Source: a virus (taxonomy: Duplodnaviria > Heunggongvirae > Uroviricota > Caudoviricetes). Taken from it: a DNA stretch of 48,006 bases. The translations under genes and the position numbers were made by a program. The stretch lies in the IMG/VR virus record IMGVR_UViG_2913147268_000002; one strand, 5' to 3'. The notes below the pieces were generated by a model that was not told the DNA's origin, did no database searches, and saw only the letters and a program-made list of their open reading frames with translations. Below, in pieces: positions 17,720 to 23,106 of the stretch; position 1 is the first letter of the stretch; the number at the start of each line of letters is the position of its first letter.

Positions 17720-18556
17720 TTGGCGTCGCTGGTGGTGATGAAAAAAACACTAAGTGAGGCCACTGCGATGACAGTCCAAATATCTGCGGAATCCCTTTCT
17801 CCGCTACATCATAACCAACTTCCCGTCATCACTACTGAATTGCTTGCCAGTTTGTATGGCACGGAAGTAAATGGTATCCAGCAAAACTTCAAGCGCAACA
17901 TCGCCAGATTTGTCGTAGGAAAGCATTTTTTTAAGCTGGAAGGTAATGAATTACGCGACTTCAAAAACAGACTGACAGATAGTCAGTCAGTTGCTAAACA
18001 TACCCGATCCCTCATTCTCTGGACAGAACGCGGCGCAGCTCGCCATGCCAAAATGCTGGAAACAGAACAGGCCTGGGAAGTTTTCGAAAAGCTGGAAGAT
18101 TGTTATTTTAGCCAGCGTCCAGAGAGGCGGAGTACAACTACCGATGACCGTACTCCCTTGCGTGATGCCGTTAATATACTGGTCGGCAAGAAAGGCATGA
18201 TGTATCCCGATGCCTACACCATGATTCATCAACGCTTCGCCGTCTCTCACATAGAACAACTGTCACAGACGCAAATGTTAGAGGCGATTGAATACATCCA
18301 CTGCCTGCTACTCGATGAAAATCACCCAACCATTCCAGATTTTTCTTTTATCACCACTATCAAAAATGGAAAAGTGACCGGGATGCGCCATGTTGCCAAA
18401 GGCGAACATCTGATGACCTTTGACGCTTTCAAAGAGATCGCTGAGCGGGCAGGGTATCTGGTGATCCACAGCGACAATCTGCGAAGTATGACACTGGATA
18501 AATTGATGGTAATGGGGAAAAAGTCGGCTATATCCGTTGCTAATTCAGCATTTTGA
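17720..18556 (+). CDS. ORF6N-domain protein, putative antirepressor
   Basis: N-terminal region LPVITTELLASLYGTEVNGIQQNFKRNIARF...LILWTERGAARHAKMLETEQAWEVFEKLED resembles the ORF6N/KilA-N-related domain of phage antirepressors; start uncertain (17720, 17738 or 17768). Confidence 0.6.
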   Translation: MASLVVMKKTLSEATAMTVQISAESLSPLHHNQLPVITTELLASLYGTEVNGIQQNFKRNIARFVVGKHFFKLEGNELRDFKNRLTDSQSVAKHTRSLILWTERGAARHAKMLETEQAWEVFEKLEDCYFSQRPERRSTTTDDRTPLRDAVNILVGKKGMMYPDAYTMIHQRFAVSHIEQLSQTQMLEAIEYIHCLLLDENHPTIPDFSFITTIKNGKVTGMRHVAKGEHLMTFDAFKEIAERAGYLVIHSDNLRSMTLDKLMVMGKKSAISVANSAF

Positions 18557-18730: not shown

Positions 18731-19654
18731 TTATTGGTTTCTGAGGAAAGCGATTCTTGAAAGGGTCATTTGCGTCTGGCAGTCGACCATTTTCTTGACT
18801 TCAGCATCTGTTCCCTGCATTGAAACTTTACCGCACATAGCATCCTTAGTTTTGATCCACTGACGCTGAGAAGGCAGCAAATCTTTTTTCTTCGCCGGGG
18901 TTAACTTGCTCCAGACGGTACTCAAATCAGAGTCGGCATTCGCAAATGCCATTCGGGACTGATCAAGGTTGTCAGCTTTTTGCGGCTGAAGTTGTGCCTG
19001 TCTCTCTATTTGCTTCTCCGCCTCATACTTAGCCTGTTCTTGCGCCCTGAGTTGCACCTGTTGTTCCGCTTCAATTTGACTCTGTTGGGCATCCTTAGCC
19101 TGCTGGATTTTCTGCTGCTCAACGATCGGGGTGATAATGGAAAGCGATGTCAGTAAAGCGGCGCCCACTGATATCGGATTATCAGTAGAGGTTTTTACAA
19201 AAACGTTTTTCTGATCGTCGGTCGCCTGCACGGTGTAGGTGATACGTTTTGAAAAGGCGTTTGCGTTGTTCTCCAAAAACAGGCTTTCCATTTGCTTATC
19301 GAGATTACGATTAAAATTCTTTCTGTAAGCATCTGAAAGCTGGACGTACTCGTTCGCAGATAGAGTCATCGTCACGGTCCCTTCACAAGTTTTCATTGTG
19401 CTGCCCGTGTCACTTGATGTTGTGGAGATCTCAGAGATGGCTAGTTTGATCTTGTCCAGTGTGCTTCGTTTGGTCTGATTAGTGACATCAGGGTATTTAT
19501 CGACCTGTTCAGAGAGTCCTTCATAAGCAGATTTTTTTAATAAATCCATGAGAGCTGACTGGGTTATTTCCGAAGAACAACCGATCTCATCTTTTTTGTT
19601 ATCACAGCCTGTAAGGGCAATGGCGAGTAAGAGTACTGAGTATTTTAATCTCAT
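18731..19654 (-). CDS. Lipoprotein with C-terminal DUF1311 (LprI-like) domain
   Basis: Signal peptide plus lipobox (LLLAIALTGC); Gln/Glu-rich coiled region; C-terminus PSQRQWIKTKDAMCG...QMTLSRIAFL resembles DUF1311; RBS AAAGGGA. Confidence 0.7.
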   Translation of the reverse strand: MRLKYSVLLLAIALTGCDNKKDEIGCSSEITQSALMDLLKKSAYEGLSEQVDKYPDVTNQTKRSTLDKIKLAISEISTTSSDTGSTMKTCEGTVTMTLSANEYVQLSDAYRKNFNRNLDKQMESLFLENNANAFSKRITYTVQATDDQKNVFVKTSTDNPISVGAALLTSLSIITPIVEQQKIQQAKDAQQSQIEAEQQVQLRAQEQAKYEAEKQIERQAQLQPQKADNLDQSRMAFANADSDLSTVWSKLTPAKKKDLLPSQRQWIKTKDAMCGKVSMQGTDAEVKKMVDCQTQMTLSRIAFLRNQ

Positions 19655-20841
19655 GAATTCCCTTTAGAGTAAGGATTGGTTTTTAAGACGCGGTCTGTAA
19701 TCAGTCCCGAGAGCTACAGTAAACAACGCTGAGCACTGAACGCATCACAGGTAAGGTAAAAGGTGATATCGGCAAAGGCTGTGAAACCTTTAATTCAACA
19801 GATGGGAACGGTATGCGCAGGATCCTGTAACGACGCTCCCAAAACCGGAAACCTGTAAGGCATGTTTTCGCTGCTGAACTTAATATACGAACCTGCACTA
19901 TCATGAACATATTTTATATCGTTATACCCCGAGTGATTGTGCCCGGCAATGGATAGTGTCCTGGAGGAACTATTTCTACTGTAAAAGGTAGATATTTAAT
20001 TTCAGTTTTGAATTATTCCCTGCTGTTAATAACAATGGCTGTATATGGCACCGAGTAGGCATTTTTTCGCTTACTGAAGGGCAGCTGTGAGCGAGGAACA
20101 GACTTTCCCTACTTCGTTGAGAGTACACCTAGTACAATCAAGGCTAAATGATAAAAATATACAAAATATCATATTTATGATATATATAATGGCATTAATC
20201 TTATTCTTGGATTACGTTGAAAGGGTAATATTATATTTGTGTAACATAGTTTAGATAACAATGCCGTTATGGGGGGGGAAAGACATTTCAACATATTAGC
20301 TTTGTATCTAACGCTCATGTAGATCTCGATTTTGAACTTAAAGAACAATTATTTTTTAGAGAGCAAGGTATTTTTGGGGAACAAAAACATAAAGTAATGG
20401 AGAGAGGAGAATGTATCAAAAAATCATCGATTTAATTTAGATTGTCCGTATAGTTGGGGGTAAGTCGAATCGCTGGGCTACATGGAATATTGTGTCAAGT
20501 AAAAATATATTTCAATCTTGCAATAACCGATTGTTGAAAATAATGTCAAATCTTAATGGTGAATGGGGAGAATATAATAAACATGAGTCGATATTATGCA
20601 AATGGATTTAAATATTTTATACCCGAAGACATAGGGTTTCGAGAGTTCGATGAGACTACTTTGAATGCTTTCGAATTTGCTGGCTAAAACATATAGGTTA
20701 TATCTTACATCTGTTTGTAATGGAGCGTAGATGCGACAAGCTACACCATAATAATCATATTATGATATATTGTTAAGTTGTTATGGCATTAAATAAAATT
20801 ATGTCATTTTGTTAACCAAGCAAGAATCAAAGGACTTTTAG

Positions 20842-21540
20842 ATGGGTACGGCATTAATTTCAAGCTTTATTAGTGGTGCAATAGCTATAATCTCTATTGC
20901 TATATCTACTTATAATCAGAATAGAATAAACAAGCTCAATGAATCACTGGATGTAAGGAGAAAACATCAGTACTATATTGAACCGTTAATTCGCTCAGCT
21001 TCAGACTTACAAAGCCGTATTTATAATATATTAGAATTGGGGTTCATTGAAGAGTTTTATCATAATGGGAATAAGCGCCAACAAGATTATGTTATCAACA
21101 ATACTGTTTTTCTTTTTTCCCAGTTTTTTGCATGGACAGAAGCTGCCCGCATAGACATTCAATACCTTAGCCTAGAAAAAAATAAAAAAATGAGGGAGTT
21201 TATTAGATTACAGAACAATATTAACTCATTAATCCAAACAGACGTCTTTGGTCAGTATTTTATGTTTTTCATAGGAGAGCAGAGAGCTATTGCAGAAAAG
21301 ATGCTGATATCAACAGATACTGGATTTGATTGCATAGGTTACGGCAGTTTCACAAAGGAAAATTGCTTTATCAATGAGCCATTTTTTTTAGATTTAAACA
21401 ATGAAGTGATAAATATGACAAGAGATATCGGAATTTATAAAGAAAGGCTAATCAGAATACAGCACGCGTTAATCGATTTAATTAATTTTCTTGATCCTGG
21501 CATGATTCGATTTGACGGAAAAAAATATGGAAAAATATAA
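20842..21540 (+). CDS. Membrane-anchored hypothetical protein (232 aa) in AT-rich cargo island
   Basis: N-terminal TM helix (TALISSFISGAIAIISIAISTY) followed by a soluble domain with no family I recognise; RBS AAAGGA; own downstream 12-bp-stem hairpin. Confidence 0.65.
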   Translation: MGTALISSFISGAIAIISIAISTYNQNRINKLNESLDVRRKHQYYIEPLIRSASDLQSRIYNILELGFIEEFYHNGNKRQQDYVINNTVFLFSQFFAWTEAARIDIQYLSLEKNKKMREFIRLQNNINSLIQTDVFGQYFMFFIGEQRAIAEKMLISTDTGFDCIGYGSFTKENCFINEPFFLDLNNEVINMTRDIGIYKERLIRIQHALIDLINFLDPGMIRFDGKKYGKI

Positions 21541-21724
21541 CCCAGATGATTCGTATCAAGGTAAGTTGCTATATGTATCAATTTAATTATGGTTGGGTGA
21601 AATTTATGTTAATAGTAGCGGAGGGTTAGTTAAAATATGCTCTCAGTGATTTTTGGATAGTTCTTTTATTTATCATTGAAAGTAAATATGTATAGCTTCA
21701 AGATTTACAAGTGAATCTGTTTAT

Positions 21725-21758
21725 TGACAGTCCGCTTATGGCACAGAGCGGACTGTCA
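21725..21758 (+). terminator. Terminator-like hairpin after the 232-aa gene
   Basis: Perfect 12-bp stem TGACAGTCCGCT / AGCGGACTGTCA with a 10-nt loop, followed by T/A-rich sequence. Confidence 0.5.
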
Positions 21759-21956
21759 TATTAAATTTGGCTCCACGCCATAGATGTGTCAGCTCATATC
21801 TTATCTAATACACACAATAACTTTCTCATTCTTGGAGAATTATTTTTTTAAGGGTAGGTGTTGACGTTAGAGCAAAAGAATGGTGATTTTTTTGATGTGT
21901 ATTACGTTGGAACTGATGGGAATAACTATCTGTTTTCAACGCACTGCTAATTTATC

Positions 21957-21978
21957 AAGGCCCTTTGATCAGGGCCTT
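21957..21978 (-). terminator. Hairpin downstream of the gene at 22003-22608
   Basis: AAGGCCCT-TTGATC-AGGGCCTT; no U-tract. Confidence 0.35.
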
Positions 21979-22002
21979 CGAAAGACTGTTGGACCGAGAG
22001 AG

Positions 22003-22608
22003 TTACTTGCGTTTAAAAAGGTATTTTGTCACGACCAGCACGAGGCCGAATACCTCTGTCAAAGTACCGCCCATGTACAACTGTAGTGTTAAATCCTCAA
22101 ATTCCAGCTTACCTGCGCCGTCGGCAATAAATACACCATTCATTATCAGAAGTTGGAAAGCAAGGATAATCAGGAACCATTTCCCGTATCGTTTTTTTAG
22201 AGCGATTTCTGCTTCAAAATCTTTGTTGTTGAGTTGTTTGCGCTCATGCTCGGTATCAAGTGAATTCACCTGTTTCACAGATGTGAACTCGGTCAAGATT
22301 TTACTCTCAGTACGGGTGACTTGTTGAGAGGGTGTAGCAGTTGGAATTCTTTTGCTAGACGCAGCTACAGCCATTTTGCGAGCTTCGGCAGCTCTTTTTC
22401 TGGCTATTCCGCGAATACGGACAGCCGTTTTTTTGGGGGCGTGCGAAACCTTTGGCTGAGGTGAAGCTTCGTCAGGAGACTGAACCGGAGTTTCATCGTC
22501 CTCCGGCTCAACCTCTTCTGCTAACTGACGGTGTAGGTTGAGGGAATCCTTCAGTCTGCGTGCTACTTCCTGTTTGAAACGGCTGTTAAAATCGTCATCC
22601 GATGGCAT
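22003..22608 (-). CDS. Membrane protein (201 aa), charged N-terminal region and two C-terminal hydrophobic helices
   Basis: WFLIILAFQLLIMNGVFIA and GGTLTEVFGLVLVVTKYLF; starts 10 nt after the ImmA-like stop, so probably co-transcribed. Confidence 0.6.
   Translation of the reverse strand: MPSDDDFNSRFKQEVARRLKDSLNLHRQLAEEVEPEDDETPVQSPDEASPQPKVSHAPKKTAVRIRGIARKRAAEARKMAVAASSKRIPTATPSQQVTRTESKILTEFTSVKQVNSLDTEHERKQLNNKDFEAEIALKKRYGKWFLIILAFQLLIMNGVFIADGAGKLEFEDLTLQLYMGGTLTEVFGLVLVVTKYLFKRK
22006..22084. repeat. Direct repeat copy 2
   Basis: Matches 18585-18662; here it is the genuine 3' end of the 201-aa gene. Confidence 0.85.
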
Positions 22609-22617
22609 TTTAAAGCG

Positions 22618-23106
22618 TTACCCCAACCTCAAGTTCTTTAAACGATAAGTCATCGCATCGTCAGATACGCCAAAATAATGCGCCATTATATAACTTGGTT
22701 GACCGTCAGCGTGCAGTTTTCTGACCTCATCTACCGGCATCAGAAGTTCTGCTGCGAACTTGTTTGCAAAAATTTCATCAGGATGCGTTCCGGCGCTTGC
22801 GGTTTCGCCACGTAAATCAACGTACTCATATTCATCGCTATGCGATGCTTGCCGGGCGATGTAATGCCCCAACTCATGCCCACATGAAAAACGTTGACGA
22901 ACTTTGTTGTCATCACTGTTTAGAAAGATCGCTGGATCTTGATCTTTTTGTTTAATCAGTGCGCCAGAAACTTTCCCAGGAAGATCGGTAATAAAAACAT
23001 CTAATCCCATGTCGTGAGCAATTTTCGCTGGATCAACAGGGAAACCACGCCCGCACCAGAACGTGTCCAGCACTCGCCGGGCGTGCTCTCTTGGGTTGGT
23101 AGCCAT
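22618..23106 (-). CDS. ImmA/IrrE-family zinc metallopeptidase (COG2856-like)
   Basis: HEXXH in FSCGHELGHYI and downstream EIFANKFAAELLMP motif; strong RBS GGAGGA. Confidence 0.8.
   Translation of the reverse strand: MATNPREHARRVLDTFWCGRGFPVDPAKIAHDMGLDVFITDLPGKVSGALIKQKDQDPAIFLNSDDNKVRQRFSCGHELGHYIARQASHSDEYEYVDLRGETASAGTHPDEIFANKFAAELLMPVDEVRKLHADGQPSYIMAHYFGVSDDAMTYRLKNLRLG

Follow-up and report, generated by a model that had tools for sequence, protein, structure and literature searches.

What does the gene at positions 20842 to 21540 of this prophage encode, and what might its product do for a lysogen? The window (the whole 48,006-nucleotide stretch analyzed, IMG/VR record IMGVR_UViG_2913147268_000002) is identical to a prophage located beside the tRNA Gly-Cys-Leu cluster of Escherichia coli sequence type 131 (ST131) strains, for example EC958 and JJ1886. 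An original prediction, made before this analysis, described the open reading frame (ORF) as a 232-aa protein with a single N-terminal transmembrane (TM) helix followed by a soluble part of about 200 residues. Both statements held: coordinates and strand were as given, the ATG start and 232 codons were confirmed in the window sequence, and hydropathy analysis recovered the one helix. Our central result is that this protein is a remote homolog of RTasTM, the TM subunit of an anti-phage reverse transcriptase (RT)-nitrilase system, and that it belongs to a solitary and larger sister group of that subunit. Homology to RTasTM, together with a hotspot location, makes it a reasonable candidate for a single-gene phage-exclusion factor.

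Remote homology to RTasTM

The RT-nitrilase system with a one-TM (1TM) protein is experimentally anti-phage (Rousset 2022, PMC9122126). As the reference 1TM protein we used the 229-aa protein of E. coli E101 (plasmid pFR76) given in that study's supplement; it falls in the RTasTM model's own family (E 5e-164). The window protein gave a weak hmmscan match to the PADLOC RTasTM model (E 1.8e-5, 22 bits, residues 71–204 only). This is not the full-length, high-scoring match of bona fide members, which score E 1e-122 to 1e-164 over residues 1–229. Seven further members of the window protein's family, from distant taxa, matched RTasTM models at E 1e-5 to 1e-10. When a 62-sequence alignment of the family was compared with the single E101 protein using hhalign, the probability of homology was 96.0%; against a 20-sequence RTasTM alignment it was 96.3%, with an E value of 1.5e-9 over 144 columns.

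Conserved positions correspond between the two families. Invariant residues pair (window family/RTasTM) as R59/R83, Y83/Y98, Q94/Q109, W98/W113, R103/R118, E146/E160, Q147/Q161 and G151/G165, and C164, Y167 and F170, which are conserved in at least 90% of the window family, align with RTasTM C174, Y177 and F180. An independent AlphaFold model of RTasTM (predicted local distance difference test score, pLDDT, 86) has the same full-length order of structural elements as the model of the window protein, and this agreement covers the β-hairpin and two C-terminal helices that lie beyond hhalign's reach. Both proteins are about 230 aa long (229 and 232 aa), with one N-terminal TM helix and a helical cytoplasmic domain of about 200 aa made up of a long stalk helix, a helical bundle and a β-hairpin, and each occurs on phage-related elements of Enterobacterales. 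Sequence identity is only about 19–25% (25% over 97 aa in the pairwise alignment of the window protein with RTasTM). We regard the homology, at about 20% identity, as established.

The topology of the window protein follows from simple features of its sequence. Kyte-Doolittle windows of 19 residues exceeded 1.6 only at starts 1–6, with no second TM segment. About three residues precede the TM helix, with no K or R among them, and the 22 residues that follow it contain five. By the positive-inside rule, the protein is oriented N-out/C-in, with the C-terminal 200 or so residues in the cytoplasm. Small residues (S/G/A) abound in the TM helix, where at least 90% of the family keeps A15. AlphaFold2 predicted a TM helix running into a long stalk (residues 3–65), a helical bundle and a β-hairpin at residues 155–164, with a pLDDT of 87.3 and a predicted TM-score of 0.80. 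The cytoplasmic motifs are DLQSR-x2-N (55–62), Y83, Q94-x3-W98-x-E100-x2-R103, G145-EQRA-IGE152, C164-x-GY167, Q207 and LDP219. Residues of this region that are invariant in the 62-sequence alignment are unusually polar (D55, Q57, S58, R59, N62, Y83, Q94, W98, E100, R103, E146, Q147, R148, Q207 and D218-P219). Together, these features imply a bitopic inner-membrane protein with a short N-terminus outside, one TM helix, and a stalk plus a helical cytoplasmic domain of about 190 aa.

The two families differ in breadth, in some of their conserved residues, and in genetic partners. RTasTM (UG5-large; PDLC03013/PDLC03799; TM clusters 85/1858 of Mestre 2022) is small and confined to Enterobacterales (29 clusters), whereas the window family has 825 clusters in many phyla. 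D55-LQS, N62, E100, Q207 and LDP219 are specific to the window family. In the three loci examined, the RTasTM gene overlaps the 3' end of a 957–968-aa RVT_1/nitrilase gene. A tblastn search with the RT-nitrilase gave matches only in the RTasTM loci (L098–L100); the window and all loci fetched for the window family were free of matches. The neighbors of the gene in the window are a lipoprotein gene and, on the other strand, an M78 peptidase and TM protein pair, with no RT gene adjacent. Because adjacency to an RT-nitrilase gene is absent, we consider the window family to be a solitary, larger sister group of RTasTM. Its size and breadth suggest that RT systems probably recruited their membrane subunit from the solitary family. 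In one RTasTM locus, from Morganella (L099, 3099–6001), the 1TM gene is intact but the RT-nitrilase gene that precedes it is in two pieces.

Drt1b, the optional TM partner of DRT type 1 (a UG1 RT-nitrilase), is also a small RT-nitrilase-associated membrane protein. It differs in being RT-linked and in having a shorter model (144 positions). One member of the solitary family, P0116, matched the Drt1b model weakly (E 0.005) and was the only one of the members scanned to do so. The window protein has neither a Drt1b match nor an adjacent RT gene.

The original prediction could not place the protein in any family. For Pfam and NCBIfam this is still the case: no family emerged when the window protein was scanned against both, when all 62 aligned members were scanned against Pfam, or when PDB sequences were searched with either the protein alone or the 62-member alignment. 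It is not the case for PHROG 5606 (function unknown), which matches the window protein over its full length, or for the remote relationship to RTasTM described above. A profile search of a 5.8-billion-protein set returned only close, unnamed members, and the database name "lysogenic protein" derives from the P2-EC58 record. Matches to CsgF (E 0.016 or worse, 12 members) and a CNNM match on the TM helix were dismissed as noise. PDB profile matches to "serine protease" entries (E 0.46 and 0.91) were rejected because they reflect a chance "DLQSxLYN" string in HtrA PDZ domains, which have a β-rich fold.

A solitary family and its one-gene mobile cassette

A word-indexed search found 290 homolog clusters, and an exhaustive search extended this to 825 representatives at the 50% level, nearly all of them 230–270 aa long. 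The distribution in GTDB is patchy, with 268 species matches among 185,579 genomes, and spans Proteobacteria, Acidobacteriota, Cyanobacteria, Bacteroidota, Actinomycetota, Firmicutes and Nitrospirota. Across the 70 loci that we compared, the largest cluster of neighboring genes spanned 7 loci. The 130 immediate neighbors fell into 130 Pfam families, each present in at most 4 loci, and RVT_1 and CN_hydrolase were absent from the 25 most frequent neighbor Pfam families listed.

The module is found in three forms: solitary, beside an RT-nitrilase, and fused to a protease. The fusions are rare. Two proteins, P0123 (557 aa) and P0138 (622 aa), carry an S1 (streptogrisin-like) serine protease C-terminal to the TM helix and family domain, identified by a match to PDB 1hpg at E 3e-6. 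P0138 contains the motifs SNH..., DAAVARP and GDSGS of the H/D/GDSGS triad, P0123 has GDVGS in place of the last, and both end in a NAL1_N-like tail. These S1 fusions show the module joined to enzymatic effectors, as in conflict systems.

In E. coli the gene is cargo of a compact cassette. GC content is 0.33 at 20–22 kb, compared with 0.44–0.47 in the kilobases on either side and as much as 0.60 in other parts of the window, in agreement with the AT-rich setting that had been described for the gene. By blastn, the cassette is 86% identical to a segment of phage P2-EC58 annotated "Z-region, ORF1, putative lysogenic protein". The ORF is the best-conserved part of the cassette common to the two, at 94% nucleotide identity without gaps, and the flanks are 72–88% identical with indels. 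Comparison of the two alleles gave a ratio of nonsynonymous to synonymous substitution rates (dN/dS) of 0.25, which identifies the protein as the unit under selection. Given this ratio, the best conservation within the cassette and the 825 homolog clusters, the ORF is more than a chance reading frame. A small upstream ORF (20556–20687) is the least conserved segment of the cassette (72%, with indels), and an Rfam scan of the cassette matched no family. On these grounds we rejected both a functional upstream ORF and a noncoding RNA in the long 5' region. As for the inverted repeats annotated for the P2-EC58 insert, the window has no long inverted pair, only the hairpin palindrome.

The allele with 94% identity is also found in E. 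coli GDAR2-2. There it sits in an intact P2-like prophage between the tail-fiber assembly gene G and the tail-sheath gene FI, on the opposite strand. The GDAR2-2 and P2-EC58 copies both belong to the cargo of this Z/fun slot. In reference P2 the same slot is occupied by fun(Z), a lysogenic-conversion gene that blocks T5. Fun(Z) and the solitary protein thus use an identical slot in P2-like phages, between G and FI and opposite in strand to the late genes, but Fun(Z) is 528 aa long and unrelated in sequence, and homology was rejected (hhalign probability of 0.2% with the 62-member alignment). The window copy itself is in a different prophage and outside the Z/fun slot, in a mixed-orientation cargo patch between the replication module and the Q/lysis module. 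Some of the closer relatives were likewise found as a single gene on an integrative conjugative element (ICE), in a Providencia P2 remnant adjoining AAA_15 and DUF2971 genes, in an island with AlpA and DUF4238, and in a small islet between smp and serB. The shared cassette at the Z/fun slot, its orientation opposite to the flanking late genes and the single-gene relatives on ICE and islands all support the proposal that this is an independently organized prophage accessory gene (moron). The protein is not in the hotspot tables of Rousset et al., which analyzed the gpA-gpQ slot and not Z/fun. In the literature that we found, the link to RTasTM, the existence of a solitary family about thirty-fold larger, and the occupancy of Z/fun are unreported; databases already list the gene and its PHROG, both uncharacterized.

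The ORF is present in 413 of 5,426 complete E. coli genomes, as a single copy and on the chromosome in every case, and in 408 of those carriers it is intact and at least 99% identical. A few ST131-like genomes (H2–H4, H22) have IS1 elements in or beside the gene, in the region equivalent to about 19700–22000 of the window, and in NZ_LR890693 an IS1 cuts the ORF into two pieces.

The GDAR2-2 prophage that carries the TM gene at Z/fun also has two RT genes at its old/tin hotspot (the gpA-portal slot, L102 10446–14435). One, for an RNA-directed DNA polymerase of 514 aa, recurs in 64 genomes at numerous positions in chromosomes and plasmids, a scatter suggestive of a mobile intron-type RT; the second is the retron Ec48 RT, accompanied by its membrane effector.

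In two Pantoea loci (L009 7192–7623 and L011 6544–7692), the gene directly upstream of the family member has a Pox_D5 primase-like domain. As such domains typically belong to P4-like satellites or integrative elements, these neighbors hint at a further mobile-element context.

Proposed phage exclusion and its alternatives

We favor the reading that the protein is a self-contained membrane factor for phage exclusion or abortive infection in the lysogen, and we put its probability at about 45%. Such a family would work without an RT partner, unlike RTasTM; it is single-gene cargo of mobile elements, namely the ST131 prophage, the P2 Z/fun slot, ICE and genomic islands. The conserved polar cytoplasmic site (R59, Y83, Q94, W98, R103, E146 and Q147) could sense an infection cue. 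The small-residue-rich TM helix, with the stalk, might then self-associate and act at the membrane, and the resulting membrane-level block would stop the infection in an abortive-infection-like manner. Defense genes do occur near some relatives (SIR2-HerA, HsdR, helicase-REase, CHAT-NACHT-TPR, PLD and DUF4238). A functional analogy, and no more than that, can be drawn to HalA of Hailong, a DNA-gated membrane channel effector that likewise combines a membrane effector with a cytoplasmic ligand-binding domain, an analogy already proposed in the literature for Drt1b. HalA differs in being toxic without its partner, whereas the window gene is carried stably alone, and HalA gave no structural match among the listed PDB matches.

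If the protein is protective, it would be a compact single-gene addition to the defense catalog and a phage-resistance determinant in the pandemic ST131 lineage, which is relevant to phage therapy. It would also offer a handle on the membrane partners of RT-nitrilases (DRT1/UG5), since the module could be studied without the RT. A broader version of this idea, which we hold only tentatively and think somewhat unlikely, is that the solitary family is a widespread, self-sufficient, one-protein immune module, sensor and membrane effector in one, that was lent to RT-nitrilase systems in Enterobacterales and fused to an S1 protease in a few lineages. If so, about 8% of complete E. coli genomes would carry a member of a new single-gene defense family (the identified carriers being ST131), and the P2 Z/fun slot would be a second defense hotspot.

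Several results weigh against a role in defense. Homologs are nearly absent from sequenced phages (1 record in 50,697) and plasmids (2 in 72,556). Many distant members have housekeeping neighbors (uvrC, metH, pullulanase, hemB and ychF). In an Acidobacteriota-type subclade of metagenome-assembled genomes (L045, L047, L054 and L067; also L050, L061 and L072), the family member lies inside an acyl-CoA carboxylase operon in the order carboxyltransferase, amidohydrolase, family member, biotin carboxylase/biotin carboxyl carrier protein, with 4-nt overlaps. Translational coupling of this kind is atypical for defense genes, and no defense model explains it. DRT1 and DRT11 do not require their RT-associated TM partner. 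Apart from RTasTM, none of the PADLOC models, including the candidate PDC families, matched the window protein below E 0.01. Comparison with solved and viral structures found no significant relative of the fold, which leaves every mechanism without structural backing, and searching the literature for the accession and for "lysogenic protein" brought up no functional data on the protein or its family. The candidate function originally suggested, superinfection exclusion or abortive infection, is supported indirectly, through the RTasTM homology and the hotspot; the many relatives among housekeeping genes count against it.

Much of the same evidence speaks for a serious rival, a non-defense membrane function. 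The protein would then be a tethered regulatory or scaffolding module, for example one that binds a metabolite or a partner enzyme, and the prophage copy would bring about lysogenic conversion of host physiology. The family is broad, mostly chromosomal and spread over many phyla, with conserved synteny alongside housekeeping genes, overlapping reading frames in the carboxylase operon, and a near absence from sequenced phages and plasmids. The Z/fun slot also fits, as P2 fun(Z) too alters host physiology (sensitivity to fluorodeoxyuridine, FUdR, according to the record note). However, a general cellular role does not readily account for the patchy distribution in GTDB, for the repeated appearance of the gene as AT-rich cargo on prophages, ICE and islands, or for the fact that its sole detectable relatives belong to a defense system. 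On balance we consider this rival rather unlikely. Were it true, and the protein not protective, the embedding in a metabolic operon would point to a new membrane-tethered regulatory domain that defense systems have co-opted.

Classical superinfection exclusion, in which an inner-membrane protein blocks genome entry without harm to the cell, as with P22 SieA, T4 Imm and HK97 gp15, seems improbable. A prophage-encoded, bitopic inner-membrane protein with autonomous signals is what such a mechanism would use, and the gene's relatives occupy a lysogenic-conversion slot whose reference occupant blocks T5. However, the conserved part of the protein is its cytoplasmic domain of about 190 aa, and only about three residues are periplasmic. 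The family also reaches far past prophages into contexts without phage genes, and there was no match to known superinfection exclusion proteins in PHROGs or Pfam.

We think it very improbable that the protein is a detached subunit still reliant on an RT encoded elsewhere, acting in trans as RTasTM does with its RT-nitrilase. Its homology to an RT-coupled subunit would allow this, and P2-EC58 is reported to have an Abi-P2-type RT at its other hotspot, as the GDAR2-2 P2-like prophage has its two RT genes at old/tin. Against this, tblastn located no RT-nitrilase in the window or the solitary-family loci, the GDAR2-2 RT (the sole RT tested) is present in 64 genomes compared with 413 for the gene, and RTasTM genes overlap their RT gene in the three loci examined.

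Silencing of such AT-rich DNA is common, and IS1 splits or adjoins the gene in a few genomes. Even so, silent or decaying cargo that serves no present function in ST131 is the least credible reading of the gene, given a dN/dS of 0.25, an ORF better conserved than its flanks, and 408 genomes with an intact copy.

Two other candidates were also rejected. Similarity to the α pore-forming toxins ClyA and Cry6Aa (TM-score of about 0.2, identity below 10%) is in the generic range for helical bundles. The string R202-LIRIQ-H208 recalls a HEPN RNase, but H208 lies outside the invariant and 90% columns, and no HEPN family or structure was matched.

Expression signals and neighboring genes

The gene was said to have autonomous expression signals. 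A ribosome-binding site and a strong downstream hairpin are indeed present (Table 1), but a promoter of its own could not be verified: a sigma-70 scan of the region found 10 sites, compared with 11.1 expected by chance from shuffled sequences, which is no excess in this AT-rich DNA. The hairpin has 7 G-C pairs among its 13 bp and a free energy of −23.8 kcal/mol (z = −5.6), and 0 of 200 shuffled sequences folded equally well. It lies 184 nt beyond the stop codon, and the T-tract that follows it is poor (TATTAAATTT). Its palindrome is kept in P2-EC58 (L001 1869–1902), within an annotated "left inverted repeat".

Table 1. Features of the gene and its cassette, in window coordinates
Feature	Position	Strand	Basis
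Coding sequence, 232 aa, WP_000536231.1 ("hypothetical" / "lysogenic protein")	20842–21540	+	ORF list, EC958 annotation, PHROG 5606, dN/dS, hhalign
Codons of the single N-terminal TM helix, residues ~3–24	20848–20913	+	Kyte-Doolittle, AlphaFold2 helix 3–65, alignment
Cytoplasmic stalk helix and helical-bundle domain with small β-hairpin	20914–21537	+	Invariant alignment columns, AlphaFold2, positive-inside rule
Shine-Dalgarno-like AAGGA, 7 nt 5' of ATG	20830–20834	+	Sequence reading; ribosome-binding site annotated at the equivalent place in P2-EC58
Top promoter-like site upstream, TTGTTA-18-TAAAAT, 9/12, candidate only	20770–20799	+	Sigma-70 scan
Hairpin, 13-bp stem, likely intrinsic terminator or cassette-end element	21725–21758	+	Folding, P2-EC58 conservation
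AT-rich mobile cassette (1.7 kb) with the ORF as sole conserved coding unit	20084–21812	+	blastn, per-segment identities, megablast

The suggested pairing with the lipoprotein gene of the same region is not supported. That gene (LprI-family, 18731–19654, minus strand) is outside the cassette, and the P2 copies of the cassette have no lipoprotein gene nearby. Of the 576 E. coli genomes with a match to it, 439 match across 80% or more of the gene, so at least 26 more genomes carry the lipoprotein gene than carry the ORF (439 vs. 413). Two short parts of the lipoprotein gene (query 419–451 and 889–924) gave 33–37-nt matches within "CRISPR" features, for example in NZ_CP027134, NZ_CP150989 and NZ_CM137008. 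E. coli CRISPR (clustered regularly interspaced short palindromic repeats) arrays thus appear to hold spacers against this gene.

On the other side of the ORF, an ImmA/IrrE M78 metallopeptidase gene (22618–23106, minus strand; Pfam E 8e-18, PADLOC capP-like E 2e-25) is followed by a gene for a 201-aa protein (22003–22608, minus strand; PHROG 5346) whose ORF listing suggests a hydrophobic C-terminus. The pair (22003–23106) resembles the "Peptidase_M78 + 2TM protein" entry of the P2 hotspot table (item 21, 148 occurrences; Rousset 2022) and may be a second, separate defense-like module in the same cargo patch. Further upstream, the ORF at 17720–18556 (plus strand; PHROG 4792) encodes an ORF6N-domain, anti-repressor-like protein that matches the PADLOC candidate PDC-S05 at E 1e-9.

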